DNA of 23,928 bases from a virus (lineage: Duplodnaviria > Heunggongvirae > Uroviricota > Caudoviricetes), in the IMG/VR virus record IMGVR_UViG_2913123054_000001, positions 1-23,928 of that record; one strand, 5' to 3'. This document shows positions 1,094 to 21,255 of this stretch, in pieces. The translations under genes were made by a program, and so were the position numbers. Each line of letters begins with the position of its first letter. Position 1 is the first letter of the stretch. The notes beneath the pieces were generated by a model. The model did no database searches, had not been told where the DNA came from, and saw only the letters and a program-made list of their open reading frames with translations.

Positions 1094-1383
1094 TGGTGGA
1101 TTTACGTAAAGCGGCGCGGGGCCAGATGTGCCAGGTCAGAATCCCTGGCTACTGCAATCACAATCCCGAAACGTCTGTACTGGCGCATTACCGACTGGCG
1201 GGAACGTGCGGAACAGCGATAAAGCCACACGATATGCAGGCAGCGATTGCCTGTAGCTCGTGCCACGATTTAATCGACGGGCGGGTAAAAACCAGCGATT
1301 ACACCAAAGAAGAATTACGCCTGATGCATGCAGAAGGTGTTTTTCGCACACAAGAAATCTGGAGAAAGGAGGGATATTTATGA
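1093..1383 (+). CDS. DUF1364 / YbcO-like prophage protein (Cys-rich, putative nuclease-like nin-region protein)
   Basis: 96 aa beginning MVDLRKAARGQMCQVRIPGYCNHNPETSVLAH, with conserved Cys/His positions resembling DLP12 YbcO; start overlaps the upstream stop (TAATG coupling). Confidence 0.75.
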   Translation: MVDLRKAARGQMCQVRIPGYCNHNPETSVLAHYRLAGTCGTAIKPHDMQAAIACSSCHDLIDGRVKTSDYTKEELRLMHAEGVFRTQEIWRKEGYL

Positions 1384-1922
1384 TTTACCCAACGAATACA
1401 GGAAAAAGCGGAGAACACCTTCGTCTCACCACGCTGGAAAGTGTCTGGATTCAGGGGAAACTGCGCATGTGGGGGCGCTGGTCGTATATTGGCGGCGGTA
1501 AGACGGGAAATATGTTCAACCAGTTGCTGACCTCTAAAAAGCTGACAAAAACGGCAATTAACGAGGCGCTCCGGAGGATGAAAAAAGCAGGTCTGGACAA
1601 ACCTGAACTTGAGGCTTTTTTGCGGGATATGATCAACGGCAAGCAAAAAAGCTGGCTGGTGCATTGTACTGATGCAGAGGCGTTATGCATTGATCGGGTG
1701 ATTAGTGAAGTGCTGGCAGAGCATCCTGGATTGATTTTTATCCTCCGACAAAGATATGAAGGGCGGGGGATGAGTAAGCGTAAAATGGCTGAATTGCTGA
1801 ATGATGCACATCCTGAGTGGTGTTTTAGCACATGCGAAAAGCGAATTGCTAATTGGTTAGCCGTTGCTGAATATGCCCTGTATATTCCCATGCGGGAATC
1901 ATTTGCTCAAAAAATAGCTTGA
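1380..1922 (+). CDS. Putative late-gene antiterminator (Q-like)
   Basis: 180-aa ORF; ATG at 1380 overlaps the upstream stop (ATGA) with AAGGAGGG 5 nt upstream. Sits between nin-like genes and a terminator-rich leader preceding the lysis cassette, the canonical Q slot. Call rests on position more than on recognised sequence. Confidence 0.55.
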   Translation: MIYPTNTGKSGEHLRLTTLESVWIQGKLRMWGRWSYIGGGKTGNMFNQLLTSKKLTKTAINEALRRMKKAGLDKPELEAFLRDMINGKQKSWLVHCTDAEALCIDRVISEVLAEHPGLIFILRQRYEGRGMSKRKMAELLNDAHPEWCFSTCEKRIANWLAVAEYALYIPMRESFAQKIA

Positions 1923-2006
1923 TTTTTTACGCATAAACTGCTTCAATTCCGGCAAGCTTCGCAAAGCTGTATCGCGAGGCGAATCAAGCGCATGAACTTT
2001 ACCAGA

Positions 2007-2034
2007 ACCCGCCATTGAGCGGGTTTTGTTCTTT
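2007..2034 (+). terminator. Intrinsic terminator candidate 1 in late leader
   Basis: ACCCGC(2007-2012)/GCGGGT(2019-2024) stem, 6-nt loop, then a T-rich tract TTTGTTCTTT. Confidence 0.5.
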
Positions 2035-2038
2035 CTGA

Positions 2039-2061
2039 GGCTCGCTACGGCGGGCCTTTTT
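2039..2061 (+). terminator. Intrinsic terminator candidate 2 in late leader
   Basis: 7-bp stem 2039-2045/2050-2056 (one G-U pair), UACG loop, T5 tract at 2057-2061. Confidence 0.5.
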
Positions 2062-2150
2062 CATATCCGCGCCACGCCCGGCGCAAATCTGAATAACACC
2101 ACACAAAAGGCATCTGCGAATGCCGGTGCTTTTGACGGGGTGTTTTTTAC

Positions 2151-2172
2151 GGGCCGCTGGTGGCCCTTTTTT
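2151..2172 (+). terminator. Intrinsic terminator candidate 3 (tR'-like) immediately upstream of holin RBS
   Basis: GGGCC(2151-2155)/GGCCC(2162-2166) stem, 6-nt loop, T6 tract at 2167-2172; holin RBS CAGGAGA follows at 2178-2184. Confidence 0.6.
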
Positions 2173-2188
2173 ATTTACAGGAGATGTT

Positions 2189-2575
2189 ATGGCAGAACCA
2201 GTATCCGGCACGACACAGGCCGGGCTGGCTGTTGGCGGGGTAACCGTTGTCGGCCTGTTCGACTGGATTGAGCCAGGCGTATTAATCGGGGCTTTTGCAG
2301 GTTCCATTATTTTTGTTATGTCGGCGCGCGAATACCCGGTCTGGGGAAAATTGCTGCTTTTTATCGCGTCACTGATGGCGGGAATCGTCGCCGCGCCCTT
2401 CTCGTCTTCGGTTATCACTTTGCTTACACCGGAAAGCATTTCAGCCAGTCGTTCGGTTGGTGCGCTGGTGGCGTCTGCGGTATCGGTCCGCTTGTTAATG
2501 CTGTTGGGGAATGAGCCGTCATCATTATTTGGTCGGTTCTGGCCTAAAGGGAGAGGAGGCGATGGGGGTAAGTAA
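2189..2575 (+). CDS. Putative holin (multi-pass membrane protein)
   Basis: 128 aa from ATG 2189 with CAGGAGA RBS directly upstream; three to four hydrophobic helices and a charged C-terminal tail; first gene of the lysis cassette. Confidence 0.65.
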   Translation: MAEPVSGTTQAGLAVGGVTVVGLFDWIEPGVLIGAFAGSIIFVMSAREYPVWGKLLLFIASLMAGIVAAPFSSSVITLLTPESISASRSVGALVASAVSVRLLMLLGNEPSSLFGRFWPKGRGGDGGK

Positions 2576-2855: not shown

Positions 2856-3398
2856 ATGACAAAAGACGAGATTTTTGATGCCGTTCTGGGTAAAGAGGGC
2901 GGCTACGTCAACCATCCGGATGATAAAGGTGGGCCGACCAAATGGGGCATTACGGAAAAAGTCGCCCGTGCGCACGGATATCAGGGTGATATGCGTGACC
3001 TGACGCGCGGGCAGGCGCTGGAAATACTCGAGGCGGATTACTGGTACGGCCCACGATTCGACCAGATTGCTAACCTGTCGCCGGATATTGCCGCAGAGCT
3101 GTGCGACACGGGCGTGAACATGGGACCAGCCGTGGCGTCCAGAATGTTTCAACGCTGGCTGAACGTTTTCAACCTGCGCGGGAAACTGTATCCGGATATG
3201 GATGCAGATGGACGTATCGGCCCACGAACTATTAATGCGTTACGGGCATATCTGAAAAATCGCGGCAGGGATGGCGAACGGGTAATGCTGACCGCACTGA
3301 ACTGTACGCAGGGTGAGCGCTATCTGGAGCTGGCAGAGAGACGGGAGGCCAACGAGTCGTTTGTCTACGGCTGGATGAAAGAGCGCGTGGCAGTTTAA
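2856..3398 (+). CDS. Endolysin, GH108-type N-terminal domain with C-terminal peptidoglycan-binding (PG_binding_3-like) domain
   Basis: 180 aa; N-terminal EGGYVNHPDDKGGPTKWGIT motif typical of GH108 lysozyme-like proteins; AGGAAAA RBS upstream; directly follows the holin genes. Confidence 0.8.
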   Translation: MTKDEIFDAVLGKEGGYVNHPDDKGGPTKWGITEKVARAHGYQGDMRDLTRGQALEILEADYWYGPRFDQIANLSPDIAAELCDTGVNMGPAVASRMFQRWLNVFNLRGKLYPDMDADGRIGPRTINALRAYLKNRGRDGERVMLTALNCTQGERYLELAERREANESFVYGWMKERVAV

Positions 3399-3502: not shown

Positions 3503-3535
3503 ACCCCGGCTGCGGTAACAGTCCGGGGTTTTCTG
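3503..3535 (+). terminator. Rho-independent terminator downstream of endolysin (A-tract upstream, so possibly bidirectional)
   Basis: ACCCCGG(3503-3509)/CCGGGGT(3523-3529) stem with inner CUG/CAG pairing, then TTTTCTGTTTC; lies inside the N-terminal part of track ORF 3413..3748, arguing that ORF really starts at 3566. Confidence 0.6.
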
Positions 3536-3565
3536 TTTCTGGCCTTGGGTAAGACAAAGGAAAAC

Positions 3566-3748
3566 ATGACGAATTATAAACTAATTCTGTTGAGGTTGAC
3601 TATGAAAAACGGCCTTGAATTGAAAGCGCCTGTAACTGATGACATCAGCAGAGCGGTGGCTTTTGCCATTAAGTGGGTGGCGGTTGGTATCGCTGTGTCT
3701 CCGATGCTGTATGGGCTGGCAAAACTGGTCATTGCGGTGAAATCGTAA
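3566..3748 (+). CDS. Small membrane protein (60 aa, C-terminal transmembrane helix); lysis-associated or accessory, function unknown
   Basis: In-frame ATG at 3566 with AAGGAAAAC RBS immediately after the terminator; hydrophobic stretch AVAFAIKWVAVGIAVSPMLYGLAKLVIAV. Confidence 0.45.
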   Translation: MTNYKLILLRLTMKNGLELKAPVTDDISRAVAFAIKWVAVGIAVSPMLYGLAKLVIAVKS

Positions 3749-3765
3749 GTGGGGCGGGGGTAAAT

Positions 3766-3900
3766 ATGTCAGACAGCATCATAAAACTGGCGCGGATTCT
3801 TTGTGTGGTTGTTGGCCTTTCATTTTCAGCAATGTTGGTTGCTATTTTCATTTCCACTGCCTGGCGAGTATTGGGCTTATCCGGGTTGATTGGTGGATAG
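3766..3900 (+). CDS. Small hydrophobic peptide (44 aa, single transmembrane helix), function unknown
   Basis: ATG 3766 preceded by a G-rich RBS-like run (3751-3760); sequence MSDSIIKLARILCVVVGLSFSAMLVAIFISTAW is dominated by one transmembrane helix. Confidence 0.4.
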   Translation: MSDSIIKLARILCVVVGLSFSAMLVAIFISTAWRVLGLSGLIGG

Positions 3901-3904
3901 CGAG

Positions 3905-4087
3905 ATGAAGCGGAAGCACTGGACACACAGAATGCCACGAACGGCGGCGAAATGGGCACTGGTAGCGATATTAGCGCCTTTTTTATTGGTGGGATGCGTC
4001 AGCCTGGATAAGGCGCGCCAGCTTTTCGATACCGCTTCTCAGGTCTGTGAAATTGTCGACGGTGTCCGGCAGTGTATGCAGAACTGA
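3905..4087 (+). CDS. Small putative lipoprotein (60 aa; lipobox LLVGC; about 30-aa mature peptide with 3 Cys)
   Basis: ATG 3905 with GGTGGA 8 nt upstream; basic n-region, hydrophobic h-region, lipobox L-V-G-C. Mature part lacks the Pro-rich character of canonical Rz1 o-spanins. Confidence 0.45.
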   Translation: MKRKHWTHRMPRTAAKWALVAILAPFLLVGCVSLDKARQLFDTASQVCEIVDGVRQCMQN

Positions 4088-19711: not shown

Positions 19712-20437
19712 GTGAGCAGGCTTGCGATAACCACAATCGTATTTTCTCTTTTTTTAACTTCATGTAGTTGGGATCCTAATGGTGCTAAAGCGCAGGAAAA
19801 ATGGCTATCCCAAAAAAATGAAGAAAAACAAGCGTACGATAAGCAAGTTGAGGAGAGCCAGAAAAGCAGGCTTCAAATACAGCGCGAAGAAAAGTCTCAA
19901 TTTGAAGTTTCACATCCAGAGGTTATCGTTGCTGGTGTTGGGAACGAGCTTACAAGTAAGGGTGCAGAATCTTTGCGAGATGCGTACAACAGCATTCCAT
20001 TCGTAACTCGTTATCCGGGAACCACGGACCCTAACAAAGTTTATACCTATGTCGGTGACTACAAATTAAATTTGCAACTGGTTAACACATCTGTGCTTTC
20101 TCAGATCTCAGATTGCAAACGCATTTCAGCGTATGCCGATGTTGATATTAATCGTACTTGCTTCAATCAAATTGGAAATGATTTGAGTTTGTTTGCATCT
20201 GTAATTAAAGACAAAAATATTACCGGAATTGCAAAAAAAGCAGCTCTACGAGACTCAACTTACGGAACCAAAATTGATTTTGGTCATGCTGCGCGTTTAG
20301 CAAAAATGCATGCCACTTTATGCCAAAAGCAGGGCGGTAAAGGATTTGTCAAAATGTCGACTGTAGCTGTGCCTTGCGGCTCTTCAGGCGATGTAATTAA
20401 CTATCGAAGCGCCGGTAAGATGGGGCTTATAAACTGA
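19712..20437 (+). CDS. AT-rich moron: predicted lipoprotein (241 aa; lipobox LTSC; Lys/Glu/Gln-rich linker followed by a Cys-containing globular domain), function unknown
   Basis: GTG start with GAGGTG RBS at 19696-19701; N-terminus MSRLAITTIVFSLFLTSC is a type II signal peptide with Ser at +2. The first 60 nt are about 38% G+C and the whole gene looks markedly AT-rich against its neighbours; followed by its own strong terminator. Confidence 0.7.
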   Translation: MSRLAITTIVFSLFLTSCSWDPNGAKAQEKWLSQKNEEKQAYDKQVEESQKSRLQIQREEKSQFEVSHPEVIVAGVGNELTSKGAESLRDAYNSIPFVTRYPGTTDPNKVYTYVGDYKLNLQLVNTSVLSQISDCKRISAYADVDINRTCFNQIGNDLSLFASVIKDKNITGIAKKAALRDSTYGTKIDFGHAARLAKMHATLCQKQGGKGFVKMSTVAVPCGSSGDVINYRSAGKMGLIN

Positions 20438-20461
20438 AAAGATCAAATTAGTCACATAAAA

Positions 20462-20483
20462 CCCGCCGGATGGCGGGTTTTTT
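20462..20483 (+). terminator. Rho-independent terminator following the lipoprotein moron
   Basis: CCCGCC(20462-20467)/GGCGGG(20472-20477) stem with GGAU loop and T6 tract at 20478-20483; A-tract upstream suggests possible bidirectional function. Confidence 0.75.
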
Positions 20484-20502: not shown

Positions 20503-21255
20503 ATGGCAGTATCTGACCAGACTCGCAGCGGCGACCTTGCCGAAACATTCAAATCTGAACGGGAAACAACAAAGAACCAGATCCGTGTCGCCTTGCCTGG
20601 CATTATTCAGTCATTCGATCCTGATGCGGTGACGGCAGTTGTGCAGCCTGCTATCCGTTCGGTTGAAAAGGATAATGACGGCAACCGCATTACCAAAAAT
20701 TACCCATTGCTGGTGGATGTGCCAGTGGTATTCCCGCGTGGCGGAGGATGTACGCTAACGTTTCCGATTAAATCCGGTGATGAGTGTTTGGTGATTTTTG
20801 CCGATCGTTGTATTGATTTCTGGTGGCAGAGTGGCGGGATACAGGAGCCGGTTGATGACAGAATGCATGATTTATCGGATGCGTTTTGTATTGTAGGTCC
20901 CCAGTCGCAGGCGAGGAAGATTAGCGGTATTAATACCAGTGCCACACAGTTGCGTAGTGACGACGGCAGCACCTATTTTGAGCTTAATCCTGATACCAGG
21001 AAAATTAAAATTGTCGCTCCGGGTGGTCTTGATGTGGTTGCCCCTCTGGCTGATTTTTCTGAGAAAGTAACCATTCATGGCCTGTTAACCTGGATGGGTG
21101 GCATGGTGGGGTCTGTTGTTTCTGGTGTGGCTTCAAAAATCACTGGTGCTGTTGAGTTTTTGGGTAGCGTGAAGGCTAACGGCAAGCCAATCGATGATAC
21201 GCACACTCATGGCGGTGTTCAGCGCGGTGGAAGCAATACCGACGGAGTAAACTGA
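20503..21255 (+). CDS. Baseplate central spike protein (P2 gpV / Mu gp45-like)
   Basis: 250-aa ORF with Gly-rich C-terminal region (HTHGGVQRGGSNTDG) typical of gpV-like spike apex domains; precedes the wedge and J-like genes. Confidence 0.65.
   Translation: MAVSDQTRSGDLAETFKSERETTKNQIRVALPGIIQSFDPDAVTAVVQPAIRSVEKDNDGNRITKNYPLLVDVPVVFPRGGGCTLTFPIKSGDECLVIFADRCIDFWWQSGGIQEPVDDRMHDLSDAFCIVGPQSQARKISGINTSATQLRSDDGSTYFELNPDTRKIKIVAPGGLDVVAPLADFSEKVTIHGLLTWMGGMVGSVVSGVASKITGAVEFLGSVKANGKPIDDTHTHGGVQRGGSNTDGVN

Follow-up and report, generated by a model that had tools for sequence, protein, structure and literature searches.

A DUF1133 gene and the terminator-rich leader behind it: a probable late-gene switch of the phage 21 type in a lambdoid prophage

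A late promoter whose transcripts are terminated after a short RNA has been documented for the phages lambda, 21, 82 and P22 and for the Stx phages, and in lambda and the Stx phages this promoter, pR', is constitutive and terminated at tR' (PMC7547250). The Q protein of phage 21 (Q21) works as a nozzle that prevents hairpin formation in the RNA-exit channel of RNA polymerase, and the paper on its structure assigns Q21 and the Q of 933W to the family PF06530 (bioRxiv 10.1101/651190). In Gifsy-1, the gene upstream of the small RNA (sRNA) IsrK encodes a Q-like protein, AntQ, whose expression interferes with termination in vivo, an effect that is rescued by Rho (PMC4825925). Here we describe positions 1380-2188 of a stretch of viral DNA of 23,928 nucleotides (IMG/VR record IMGVR_UViG_2913123054_000001, positions 1 to 23,928; the whole stretch is called the window below). 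In this region a gene for a DUF1133 protein is followed by a non-coding gap of exactly 266 bp (1923-2188) and then by the first lysis gene. The window is the right-hand portion of a lambdoid prophage (contig VATU01000023.1, assembly GCA_005781255.1).

We think it probable that 1380-2188 is the late-gene switch of this prophage and that it follows the phage 21 pattern, with an antiterminator of the Q21 family, a cognate promoter and a set of terminators. The homology of the protein, the layout that the DNA shares with its relatives and the hairpins in the gap are taken up in that order below, and the other readings of the gap are weighed where the evidence bears on them.

The DUF1133 protein and the phage 21 Q family

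The product of 1380-1922 matched Pfam DUF1133 over its full length with 356.6 bits and barely passed the cut-off of PF06530, Phage_antitermQ, with 26.6 bits against 26. It matched PHROG 753, annotated as 'anti-termination protein Q-like', at an E value of 3e-79 and, more weakly, PHROG 943, to which phage 21 Q belongs. The reciprocal comparison agreed, Q21 itself matching both PHROG 753 and DUF1133. A search of the PDB with the single sequence gave Q21 as the best match at a non-significant E value of 0.17, and the same search with a profile of 11 family members found 6P18 and 6JNX, both structures of Q21, with an E value of 3.9e-8 and the match split into two collinear stretches. When DUF1133 was aligned directly with Q21 by hhalign, the probability was 96.5% and the E value 9e-10 over 134 columns, with residues 14-178 lined up with residues 6-152 of Q21; relative to Q21, DUF1133 carries an insertion of about 30 residues (42-70). 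Because of this homology to Q21 in the profile and hhalign comparisons, and because of the cross-matches among the PHROG and Pfam families, DUF1133 is best read as an offshoot of the phage 21 Q family that has diverged within the PF06530 lineage. A preliminary description of the region, made from the DNA sequence alone, had called this product Q-like, and the homology searches bore out that identity and gave no sign that the product belongs to an unrelated family. A literature search on 'DUF1133' found no paper.

The same family is found next to isrK. The E. coli protein encoded beside isrK in locus L011 scored 359 bits against DUF1133, and the DUF1133 proteins of L011 and of locus L013 were 84-87% identical to the window protein. 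Because these isrK-adjacent genes are DUF1133 genes, Gifsy-1 AntQ is presumably a member of the DUF1133 family as well, and its disturbance of termination in vivo would lend indirect support to a read-through function of the window protein.

Some records that have DUF1133 genes of the enterobacterial type carry improbable host labels (L014, L021 and phage PP818812.1). The labels in question are 'Candidatus Nanosynbacter', on a contig from a metagenome-assembled genome with DUF1133 (93% protein identity), 'Vagococcus sp.', on a contig with DUF1133 (55% protein identity), and 'Actinobacillus phage' (97% nucleotide identity). Contamination or mis-binning is the likely source of these labels.

The predicted late promoter and its pause hexamer

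The DNA that follows the stop codon was aligned for 42 genome loci and several phage loci, with the fully annotated phage 21 genome OL657228 (locus L053) as the reference for the promoter (Table 1). In each of 38 distinct DUF1133 leaders a hexamer starting with TTG was followed, at a distance of 28-30 nt, by a TAnGCT hexamer; the corresponding distance in phage 21 is 30 nt. The spacing was kept whether the hexamer began 8 or 43 nt past the stop codon, and the layout of -35, spacer and TAnGCT recurred with this fixed spacing although the proteins of the loci share only 31-60% identity. Among the 38 leaders the pause hexamer was TATGCT in 12, TAGGCT in 11, TAAGCT in nine, phage 21 included, and TACGCT in six. 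In the window, CAAGCT lines up with the TAAGCT of phage 21, and at the level of the sequence a -10-like pause element is found there.

The isrK loci provide a second point of comparison. The Rfam model for isrK matched at gathering score after the DUF1133 genes of E. coli L011 (75.6 bits) and Salmonella L013 (67.1 bits). The match begins 33 nt past the stop codon and 7 nt past a TATATT, and the -35 of these loci, TTGACT, overlaps the stop codon as the predicted -35 of the window does. The start of isrK in these AntQ-type loci matches the position of the predicted start in the window and therefore supports a promoter there. We predict a late promoter behind the window gene because the layout is common to the 38 leaders and to the annotated pR' of phage 21, and because the isrK match agrees in position. 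The predicted transcription start lies near 1952, about 1 nt 5' of CAAGCT as in phage 21, and so falls within 1900-2000, the interval in which the preliminary description had expected it.

The spacer between the predicted -35 and -10 (1925-1940) is conserved within the DUF1133 family and occupies the place of the Q-binding element (QBE) of phage 21. Subsites like those of phage 21 occur in relatives (TTGAGCA in L040 and L043, ATTGAGCA in L030 and AATGAGCA in L027), and where the window reads CATAAACTGCTTCAAT in the QBE region, the Klebsiella phage locus L004 has CAGAAACTGCTTGAAT. The two subsites of the window are only loosely repeat-like. We regard 1925-1940 as a putative Q-binding element.

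The promoters of other relatives are closer to consensus. Those of Providencia, Xenorhabdus and Edwardsiella have a canonical TATAGT, TAGTAT or TAATAT about where the -10 candidate of the window falls, and near-consensus promoters among them run TTGACT, 16 bp, TATAGT or TAGTAT, 7 nt, TAyGCT. The Klebsiella-type group has its promoter within the Q gene itself, in a C-terminal extension.

Table 1. Features of the late-gene region of the window, the phage 21 reference (L053) and the neighbouring genes. SDPE, sigma-dependent pause element; T1 to T4, the hairpins of the gap in order.
Feature	Position	Strand	Remarks
Q-like late antiterminator gene	1380-1922	+	180 aa, DUF1133; start overlaps the stop of the ybcO-like gene (ATGA)
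Predicted -35, TTGATT	1919-1924	+	overlaps the Q stop codon TGA; corresponds to the TTG hexamer of 38 leaders and phage 21
Candidate QBE	1925-1940	+	8-bp subsites TTTTACGC and ATAAACTG; same position as the phage 21 QBE
Candidate -10, TTCAAT	1942-1947	+	17 bp past the -35; alternative TCAATT at 1943-1948
SDPE-like hexamer, CAAGCT	1953-1958	+	TAAGCT in phage 21; keeps A at position 2 and T at position 6
Predicted short leader RNA	1952-2036	+	about 80 nt, predicted start to U-tract of T1
T1, tR'-like	hairpin 2003-2028, to 2036 with tail	+	10-bp stem, then TTCTTTCT; -16.1 kcal/mol, z -5.3
T2	hairpin 2037-2058, to 2064 with tail	+	9-bp stem, then TTTCATAT; -16.7 kcal/mol, z -5.5
Conserved pre-lysis element	2068-2176	+	small hairpin 2069-2084, T3 with outer stem about 2090-2146, T4
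T3, weaker compound hairpin	2106-2133	+	scan: 2109-2124, weak; -12.3 kcal/mol, z -3.0
T4	hairpin 2151-2166, tail 2167-2176	+	GGGCC/GGCCC stem, then TTTTTTATTT; about -10.8 kcal/mol, z -0.4
Phage 21 Q stop	L053 1821
Phage 21 -35, TTGACA	L053 1828-1833
Phage 21 QBE	L053 1836-1851		ATTGAGCA and AATGAGCA
Phage 21 -10, AACACT	L053 1851-1856		far from the TATAAT consensus
Phage 21 transcription start	L053 1863
Phage 21 SDPE, TAAGCTG	L053 1864-1870		+2 to +8
Phage 21 terminator end	L053 1912		tRNA genes and holin follow
DUF1367 gene	494-1093	+
YbcO/DUF1364 gene	1093-1383	+
Shine-Dalgarno sequence and holin start	2179-2191	+	AGGAG 2179-2183; ATG from 2189
Holin 1, Phage_holin_8	2189-2575	+	first lysis gene
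Holin 2, Phage_holin_3_7	2562-2843	+
Endolysin, GH108/PG_binding_3	2856-3398	+
Terminase, head and tail genes	3' of the endolysin	+

Terminator hairpins, a predicted leader RNA and the probable joining of modules

The preliminary description had reported three strong hairpins and a weaker one in the 266-bp gap, and all four were found, within a few bases of the coordinates it gave. None of 200 shuffled sequences folded as well as T1 or T2, and the whole leader was better folded than its shuffles (z -3.2). T3 has no directly adjacent T-run and is nested in a longer hairpin (about 2090-2146), after which comes UUUUAC. The T4 hairpin is unexceptional against shuffles, yet it has the best U-tract of the four. 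This tract ends 3 nt 5' of the Shine-Dalgarno sequence of the holin, and therefore every holin transcript must traverse T4. T1, T2 and T4 are convincing intrinsic terminators. Terminator-like sites numbered 17 on both strands of 5 kb, compared with 5.1 +/- 2.1 in shuffled DNA; scaled to 266 nt of a single strand, about 0.14 site is expected and three to four are observed.

We then compared the terminator behind the Q gene across the family. A strict finder placed a terminator between +21 and +140 from the stop codon in 34 of 43 distinct leaders, compared with 3.3 +/- 1.8 after shuffling and with a single one in an equal-sized stretch within the Q gene. Most of the nine apparent negatives do have a terminator, which the finder misses since the stem absorbs the T-run. 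T1 lies 81-106 nt past the Q stop, and the stems of its equivalents vary by group (AACCCGC, CCTCGC, GACGCG, GCCCGAGG and others). T1 is a feature that the DUF1133 family keeps while the sequence of the stem changes.

T1 and the three hairpins behind it appear to have come from different sources. Homology with Rac-type prophages covers 1851-2040, that is, the end of the Q gene, the predicted promoter and T1, then breaks off and resumes at 2059-2179 before the holin. In the Rac-type relatives an insert of about 0.9 kb with tRNA-Thr, tRNA-Gly and a small open reading frame (ORF) lies between the two homologous pieces, and T1 and T2-T4 are usually 0.9-1.5 kb apart in relatives. Of 5,426 complete E. 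coli genomes, 962 contained partial matches to a 211-nt query, 1990-2200, which includes T1; the best of these matches covered 2024-2184 of the window, and no genome contained the query in one piece. The 2024-2184 segment has another antiterminator gene and a moron of two genes upstream and either Phage_holin_8 or the unrelated EssD holin downstream, and one more terminator precedes it in those loci. T2 follows a two-gene moron and another terminator in L050 and L051, and tandem T1-T2 pairs also occur in L024 (Kluyvera) and L028 (Enterobacter). In phage JLK-2012, which has a Q of the Q21 type, T2 and its 3' flank lie 12 nt past tRNA-Gly, the last gene of a tRNA cluster. At least one related phage, then, has T2 at the close of the tRNA genes behind tR'.

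Taken together, these comparisons suggest that T1 is the tR' of the module formed by Q and pR', that T2-T4 belong to a separate and widely shared pre-lysis module, and that T3 and T4 are part of a portable pre-lysis element. T1-T4 would lie side by side here for want of the tRNA or moron cargo that as a rule stands between them. The stack then looks like a by-product of the missing cargo, and its members would still act additively. The interpretation given in the preliminary description is supported in the main, the stacking of T1-T4 included; its single leader tuned for tight repression needs correction, T1 and T2-T4 being separate modules. A literature search for a published account of the late leader of Rac or LT-II prophages found nothing specific.

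The emphasis of that description was that the stack has been selected as a unit for unusually tight silencing of the lysis genes, and this we consider doubtful. Three or four terminators in series would multiply the efficiency of termination, T4 is placed immediately 5' of the ribosome-binding site of the holin, and an extra terminator also precedes related pre-lysis modules (L050 and L003), all of which would suit such selection; the histories of T1 and T2-T4 are nevertheless separate, and the pieces are contiguous in none of the complete E. coli genomes searched. T2 moreover has an obvious other role after the tRNA cluster, and there is no sign that control is tighter in this prophage than in its relatives. 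We prefer the explanation that two modules were joined.

The predicted leader RNA, about 80 nt long, would be the positional equivalent of lambda 6S RNA, StxS and IsrK. Rfam at gathering scores gave no match in the window, and a permissive scan of 1800-2300 gave only weak, terminator-driven matches (STnc370 with 20 bits and isrK with 11.6 bits). The isrK model (RF01394) aligns end to end at 1956-2029, at 11.6 bits and an E value of 6.2 against a gathering score of 50, and the window leader is better regarded as a positional analogue of isrK than as a member of RF01394. Another feature of the leader is a block, GCTTCGCrAAGCT, which lies 3' of the pause hexamer and is conserved across distant leaders.

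It is possible, if unlikely, that 1952-2036 mainly yields a trans-acting sRNA like IsrK or StxS and that T1 serves to make that RNA; such a role would be compatible with the late-gene switch as an added function. IsrK, which lies at the same position after AntQ-type DUF1133 genes, acts in trans (PMC4825925), and StxS is produced likewise (PMC7547250). The conserved block could be counted in favor of a trans-acting RNA, but it lies in the first 30 nt, where signals for pausing and loading are expected. The isrK score is far below the gathering score and no other Rfam family matches.

Several observations on the leaders of relatives may be added. STnc370 was considered as the Salmonella version of the leader and dropped; Salmonella locus L057 has the same type of leader and no Rfam match except to tRNAs. 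In the phage fragment L003 (SerU-LTIIb), 2649-2778 holds a segment of promoter, leader and T1 with TAAGCT, together with the final part of a DUF1133 gene, equal to 86 codons. Because the start of the DUF1133 gene is missing, we read this segment as a remnant of a Q module beside a duplicated holin region. In AntQ-type loci a C4 antisense RNA (RF01695) lies 3' of isrK; the stretch concerned is 3575-3776 in L011, where there is an overlap with a match to the c4-a1b1 target, and L013 has two isrK/C4 copies 3.3 kb apart, at 290-476 and 3588-3768. The IsrK-orf45-AnrP region looks like a module of the P1/P7 immI type (c4-icd-ant) behind a Q gene.

Copies of the pre-lysis element are about 85-88% identical upstream of two unrelated types of holin and downstream of unrelated Q genes, and T4 is nearly invariant among them. 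In the T2-T4 module, none of 29 base pairs showed a compensatory change, the copies being too similar, and therefore a conserved RNA structure is backed by thermodynamics alone. RNAalifold applied to eight copies of the pre-lysis element proposed a long-range pairing of GCCAC..CGGC (2070-2082) with the arms of T4 (2153-2165). This pairing would compete with T4 and, without compensatory changes, may be due to chance.

It is quite improbable that T2-T4 (about 2037-2176) are more than terminators and serve the lysis cassette as an independent functional RNA or regulator, such as a processed 5' untranslated region (UTR) or an sRNA. The 962 genomes matched, the varied holin and Q neighbours and the pairing that competes with T4 would agree with it, whereas the want of any compensatory pair, of an Rfam match and of a promoter-like site inside the segment argues against it, and the high identity may merely reflect recent exchange among prophages. 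A broader proposal, which we consider unlikely, is that the T2/T3/T4 element (about 110-150 bp, about 2037-2176) is a functional insulator or a holin-controlling 5' UTR or sRNA, and the leader a new RNA of the IsrK/StxS kind; a query spanning this element matches about 18% of complete E. coli genomes. If the insulator reading were true, lysis would depend strictly on antiterminated polymerase.

The analysis shows the homology of the protein, the conserved layout and the hairpins; for the late-gene switch that we favor, we infer promoter activity, a pause, binding of Q and read-through that depends on Q. In a lysogen, polymerase starting at about 1952 would make only the leader RNA of about 80 nt that ends at T1, and polymerases escaping T1 would be stopped at T2 and at T4, next to the ribosome-binding site of the holin. 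Once the prophage is induced, Q translated from the early rightward transcript would bind the QBE and load on the sigma-paused polymerase. There it would narrow the RNA-exit channel, with the result that terminator hairpins cannot form, as shown for Q21, and the Q-modified polymerase would pass T1-T4 and then the terminators within the late operon. Two such strong + strand terminators were found, one at 3503-3538, 3' of the endolysin gene (-23.1 kcal/mol), and one at 20458-20481 (AAAACCCGCCGGATGGCGGGTTTT then TTGCTTTC) in the 65-nt gap between the ORFs 19712-20437 and 20503-21255. They may bracket moron-like inserts, and they fit a need for processive antitermination.

A number of points weigh against this switch. 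The -10 candidate of the window is weak, lacking the A at -11, the pause hexamer begins with C instead of T, and the subsites TTTTACGC and ATAAACTG resemble those of phage 21 only loosely. TAnGCT could itself be the true -10, with the start then at about 1965; leaders of the Klebsiella-type group carry an extended -10 motif, TGn, just before the hexamer. The promoter is predicted here from comparative layout. T3 is atypical as a terminator and the hairpin of T4 is short. An AlphaFold model of the protein was all-helical with a mean predicted local distance difference test score (pLDDT) of 57 and a predicted template modeling score (pTM) of 0.43; the input was an 18-sequence alignment of low diversity, and a model at this pLDDT is too poor as a test of the fold. 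Finally, a scan for consensus sigma-70 promoters found none in 1850-2188, although as a control the same scan missed the validated pR' of phage 21 and its terminator too, and because it misses that promoter the negative result carries no weight. It is very improbable that the gap has no late promoter and that T1 and T2 end the early rightward (Q) transcript, the lysis and structural genes being served either by polymerase that reads through after antitermination in the early region or by some other promoter: the empty scan, the weak -10 candidate and the fact that a terminator soon after a gene also marks the end of an operon speak for it, but the fixed layout matches the pR', QBE and SDPE of phage 21 across strongly diverged proteins, the isrK match begins at the equivalent site in AntQ loci, and the scan is the one that fails on phage 21.

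The locus and its place among known systems

The Q-like gene, whose stop codon TGA is at 1920-1922, is the last gene of the early-right (nin) region and lies on the same strand as the lysis genes downstream; the window has no tRNA genes. The region occurs near base-for-base in two further assemblies (L054, on a 740-kb contig, and L056), and the agreement of these independent assemblies rules out an assembly artefact. L054 differs from the window only by a further T in each of two runs, the one just past the -35 (window 1923-1928) and the T4 tract (window 2167-2172). With the extra T of L054 in the -35/QBE spacer (6 vs 7 T), the distance from the -35 to the pause hexamer goes from 28 to 29. We also considered 2120-2188 as an N-terminal extension of the holin and rejected it, since AGGAG precedes the ATG at 2189 and, in front of an unrelated holin, this DNA is found in a different frame.

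Two observations concern the flanks. A small ORF with a lipobox (LLVGC) lies at 3890-4087, 3' of the endolysin gene; it is the 'lipoprotein moron' of the preliminary description and, from its position, could equally be a spanin component. At the other end, the window starts in the final bases of a hok-family gene (in L054 the HOK_GEF gene ends 13 nt into the window), and a clean terminator at 83-100, AACCCGCTTCGGCGGGTT then TTTTAC, is presumably the 3' end of the hok mRNA. Rfam sok matches lie upstream of the Q region in the relatives L011 and L013.

The locus is probably an ordinary lambdoid late-gene switch, and the established picture of lambdoid late control is unchanged. What the comparison adds is that DUF1133 and its promoter can be tied to the phage 21 paradigm and that a portable pre-lysis element with several terminators can be recognized. 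The Pfam and NCBI label DUF1133 could be replaced by a concrete and testable assignment, namely a late antiterminator of the Q21 type with its cognate promoter, the position of a binding element and a pause hexamer, and the same assignment would put AntQ and IsrK of Gifsy-1 into the ordinary pR' framework. TTG-N28-30-TAnGCT followed by a terminator could serve as a mark of the late promoter in many enterobacterial prophages, including carriers of toxin or tRNA cargo. Stacks of terminators before lysis genes can come from the joining of modules, and design is not required.

Among the known systems, pR' of lambda and the Stx phages shares the logic predicted here: a late promoter that fires constitutively yet is terminated, with a QBE inside it and a -10-like pause element where the transcript begins, and a long late operon that is transcribed by processive antitermination (PMC7547250). 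The Q of lambda, however, belongs to an unrelated family, PF03589, and needs refolding induced by NusA, and the lambda and Stx leaders, at 194-258 nt, are longer than the roughly 80 nt predicted for the window.

The AntQ/IsrK pair of Gifsy-1 is similar in its protein, AntQ being presumably a DUF1133 protein like that of the window, and also in its layout, in which a promoter with its -35 over the stop codon gives a 77-nt RNA ending at an intrinsic terminator, as predicted for the window. The IsrK leaders differ from that of the window in sequence, to which they are unrelated (11.6 bits against the cut-off of 50), in having no TAnGCT hexamer, and in being followed by a C4-RNA/antirepressor module instead of lysis genes.

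A further close system is phage 21. Differences are found in the protein, which is about 25% identical to Q21, has the insertion at 42-70 and falls in the Pfam class DUF1133, in the candidate QBE subsites, which have diverged from ATTGAGCA and AATGAGCA, and in the leader, which is about 50 nt in phage 21 and would be about 80 nt in the window. In close relatives, as in phage 21, tRNA genes come next and then the lysis genes; in the window, without tRNA genes, T1 is directly followed by T2-T4. The two nevertheless share a homologous Q and, by prediction for the window, a promoter that begins only a few bases from where Q stops, a binding-element position in the spacer between -35 and -10, a pause hexamer right past the start (TAAGCT in phage 21, CAAGCT in the window) and a short leader that ends at an intrinsic terminator.

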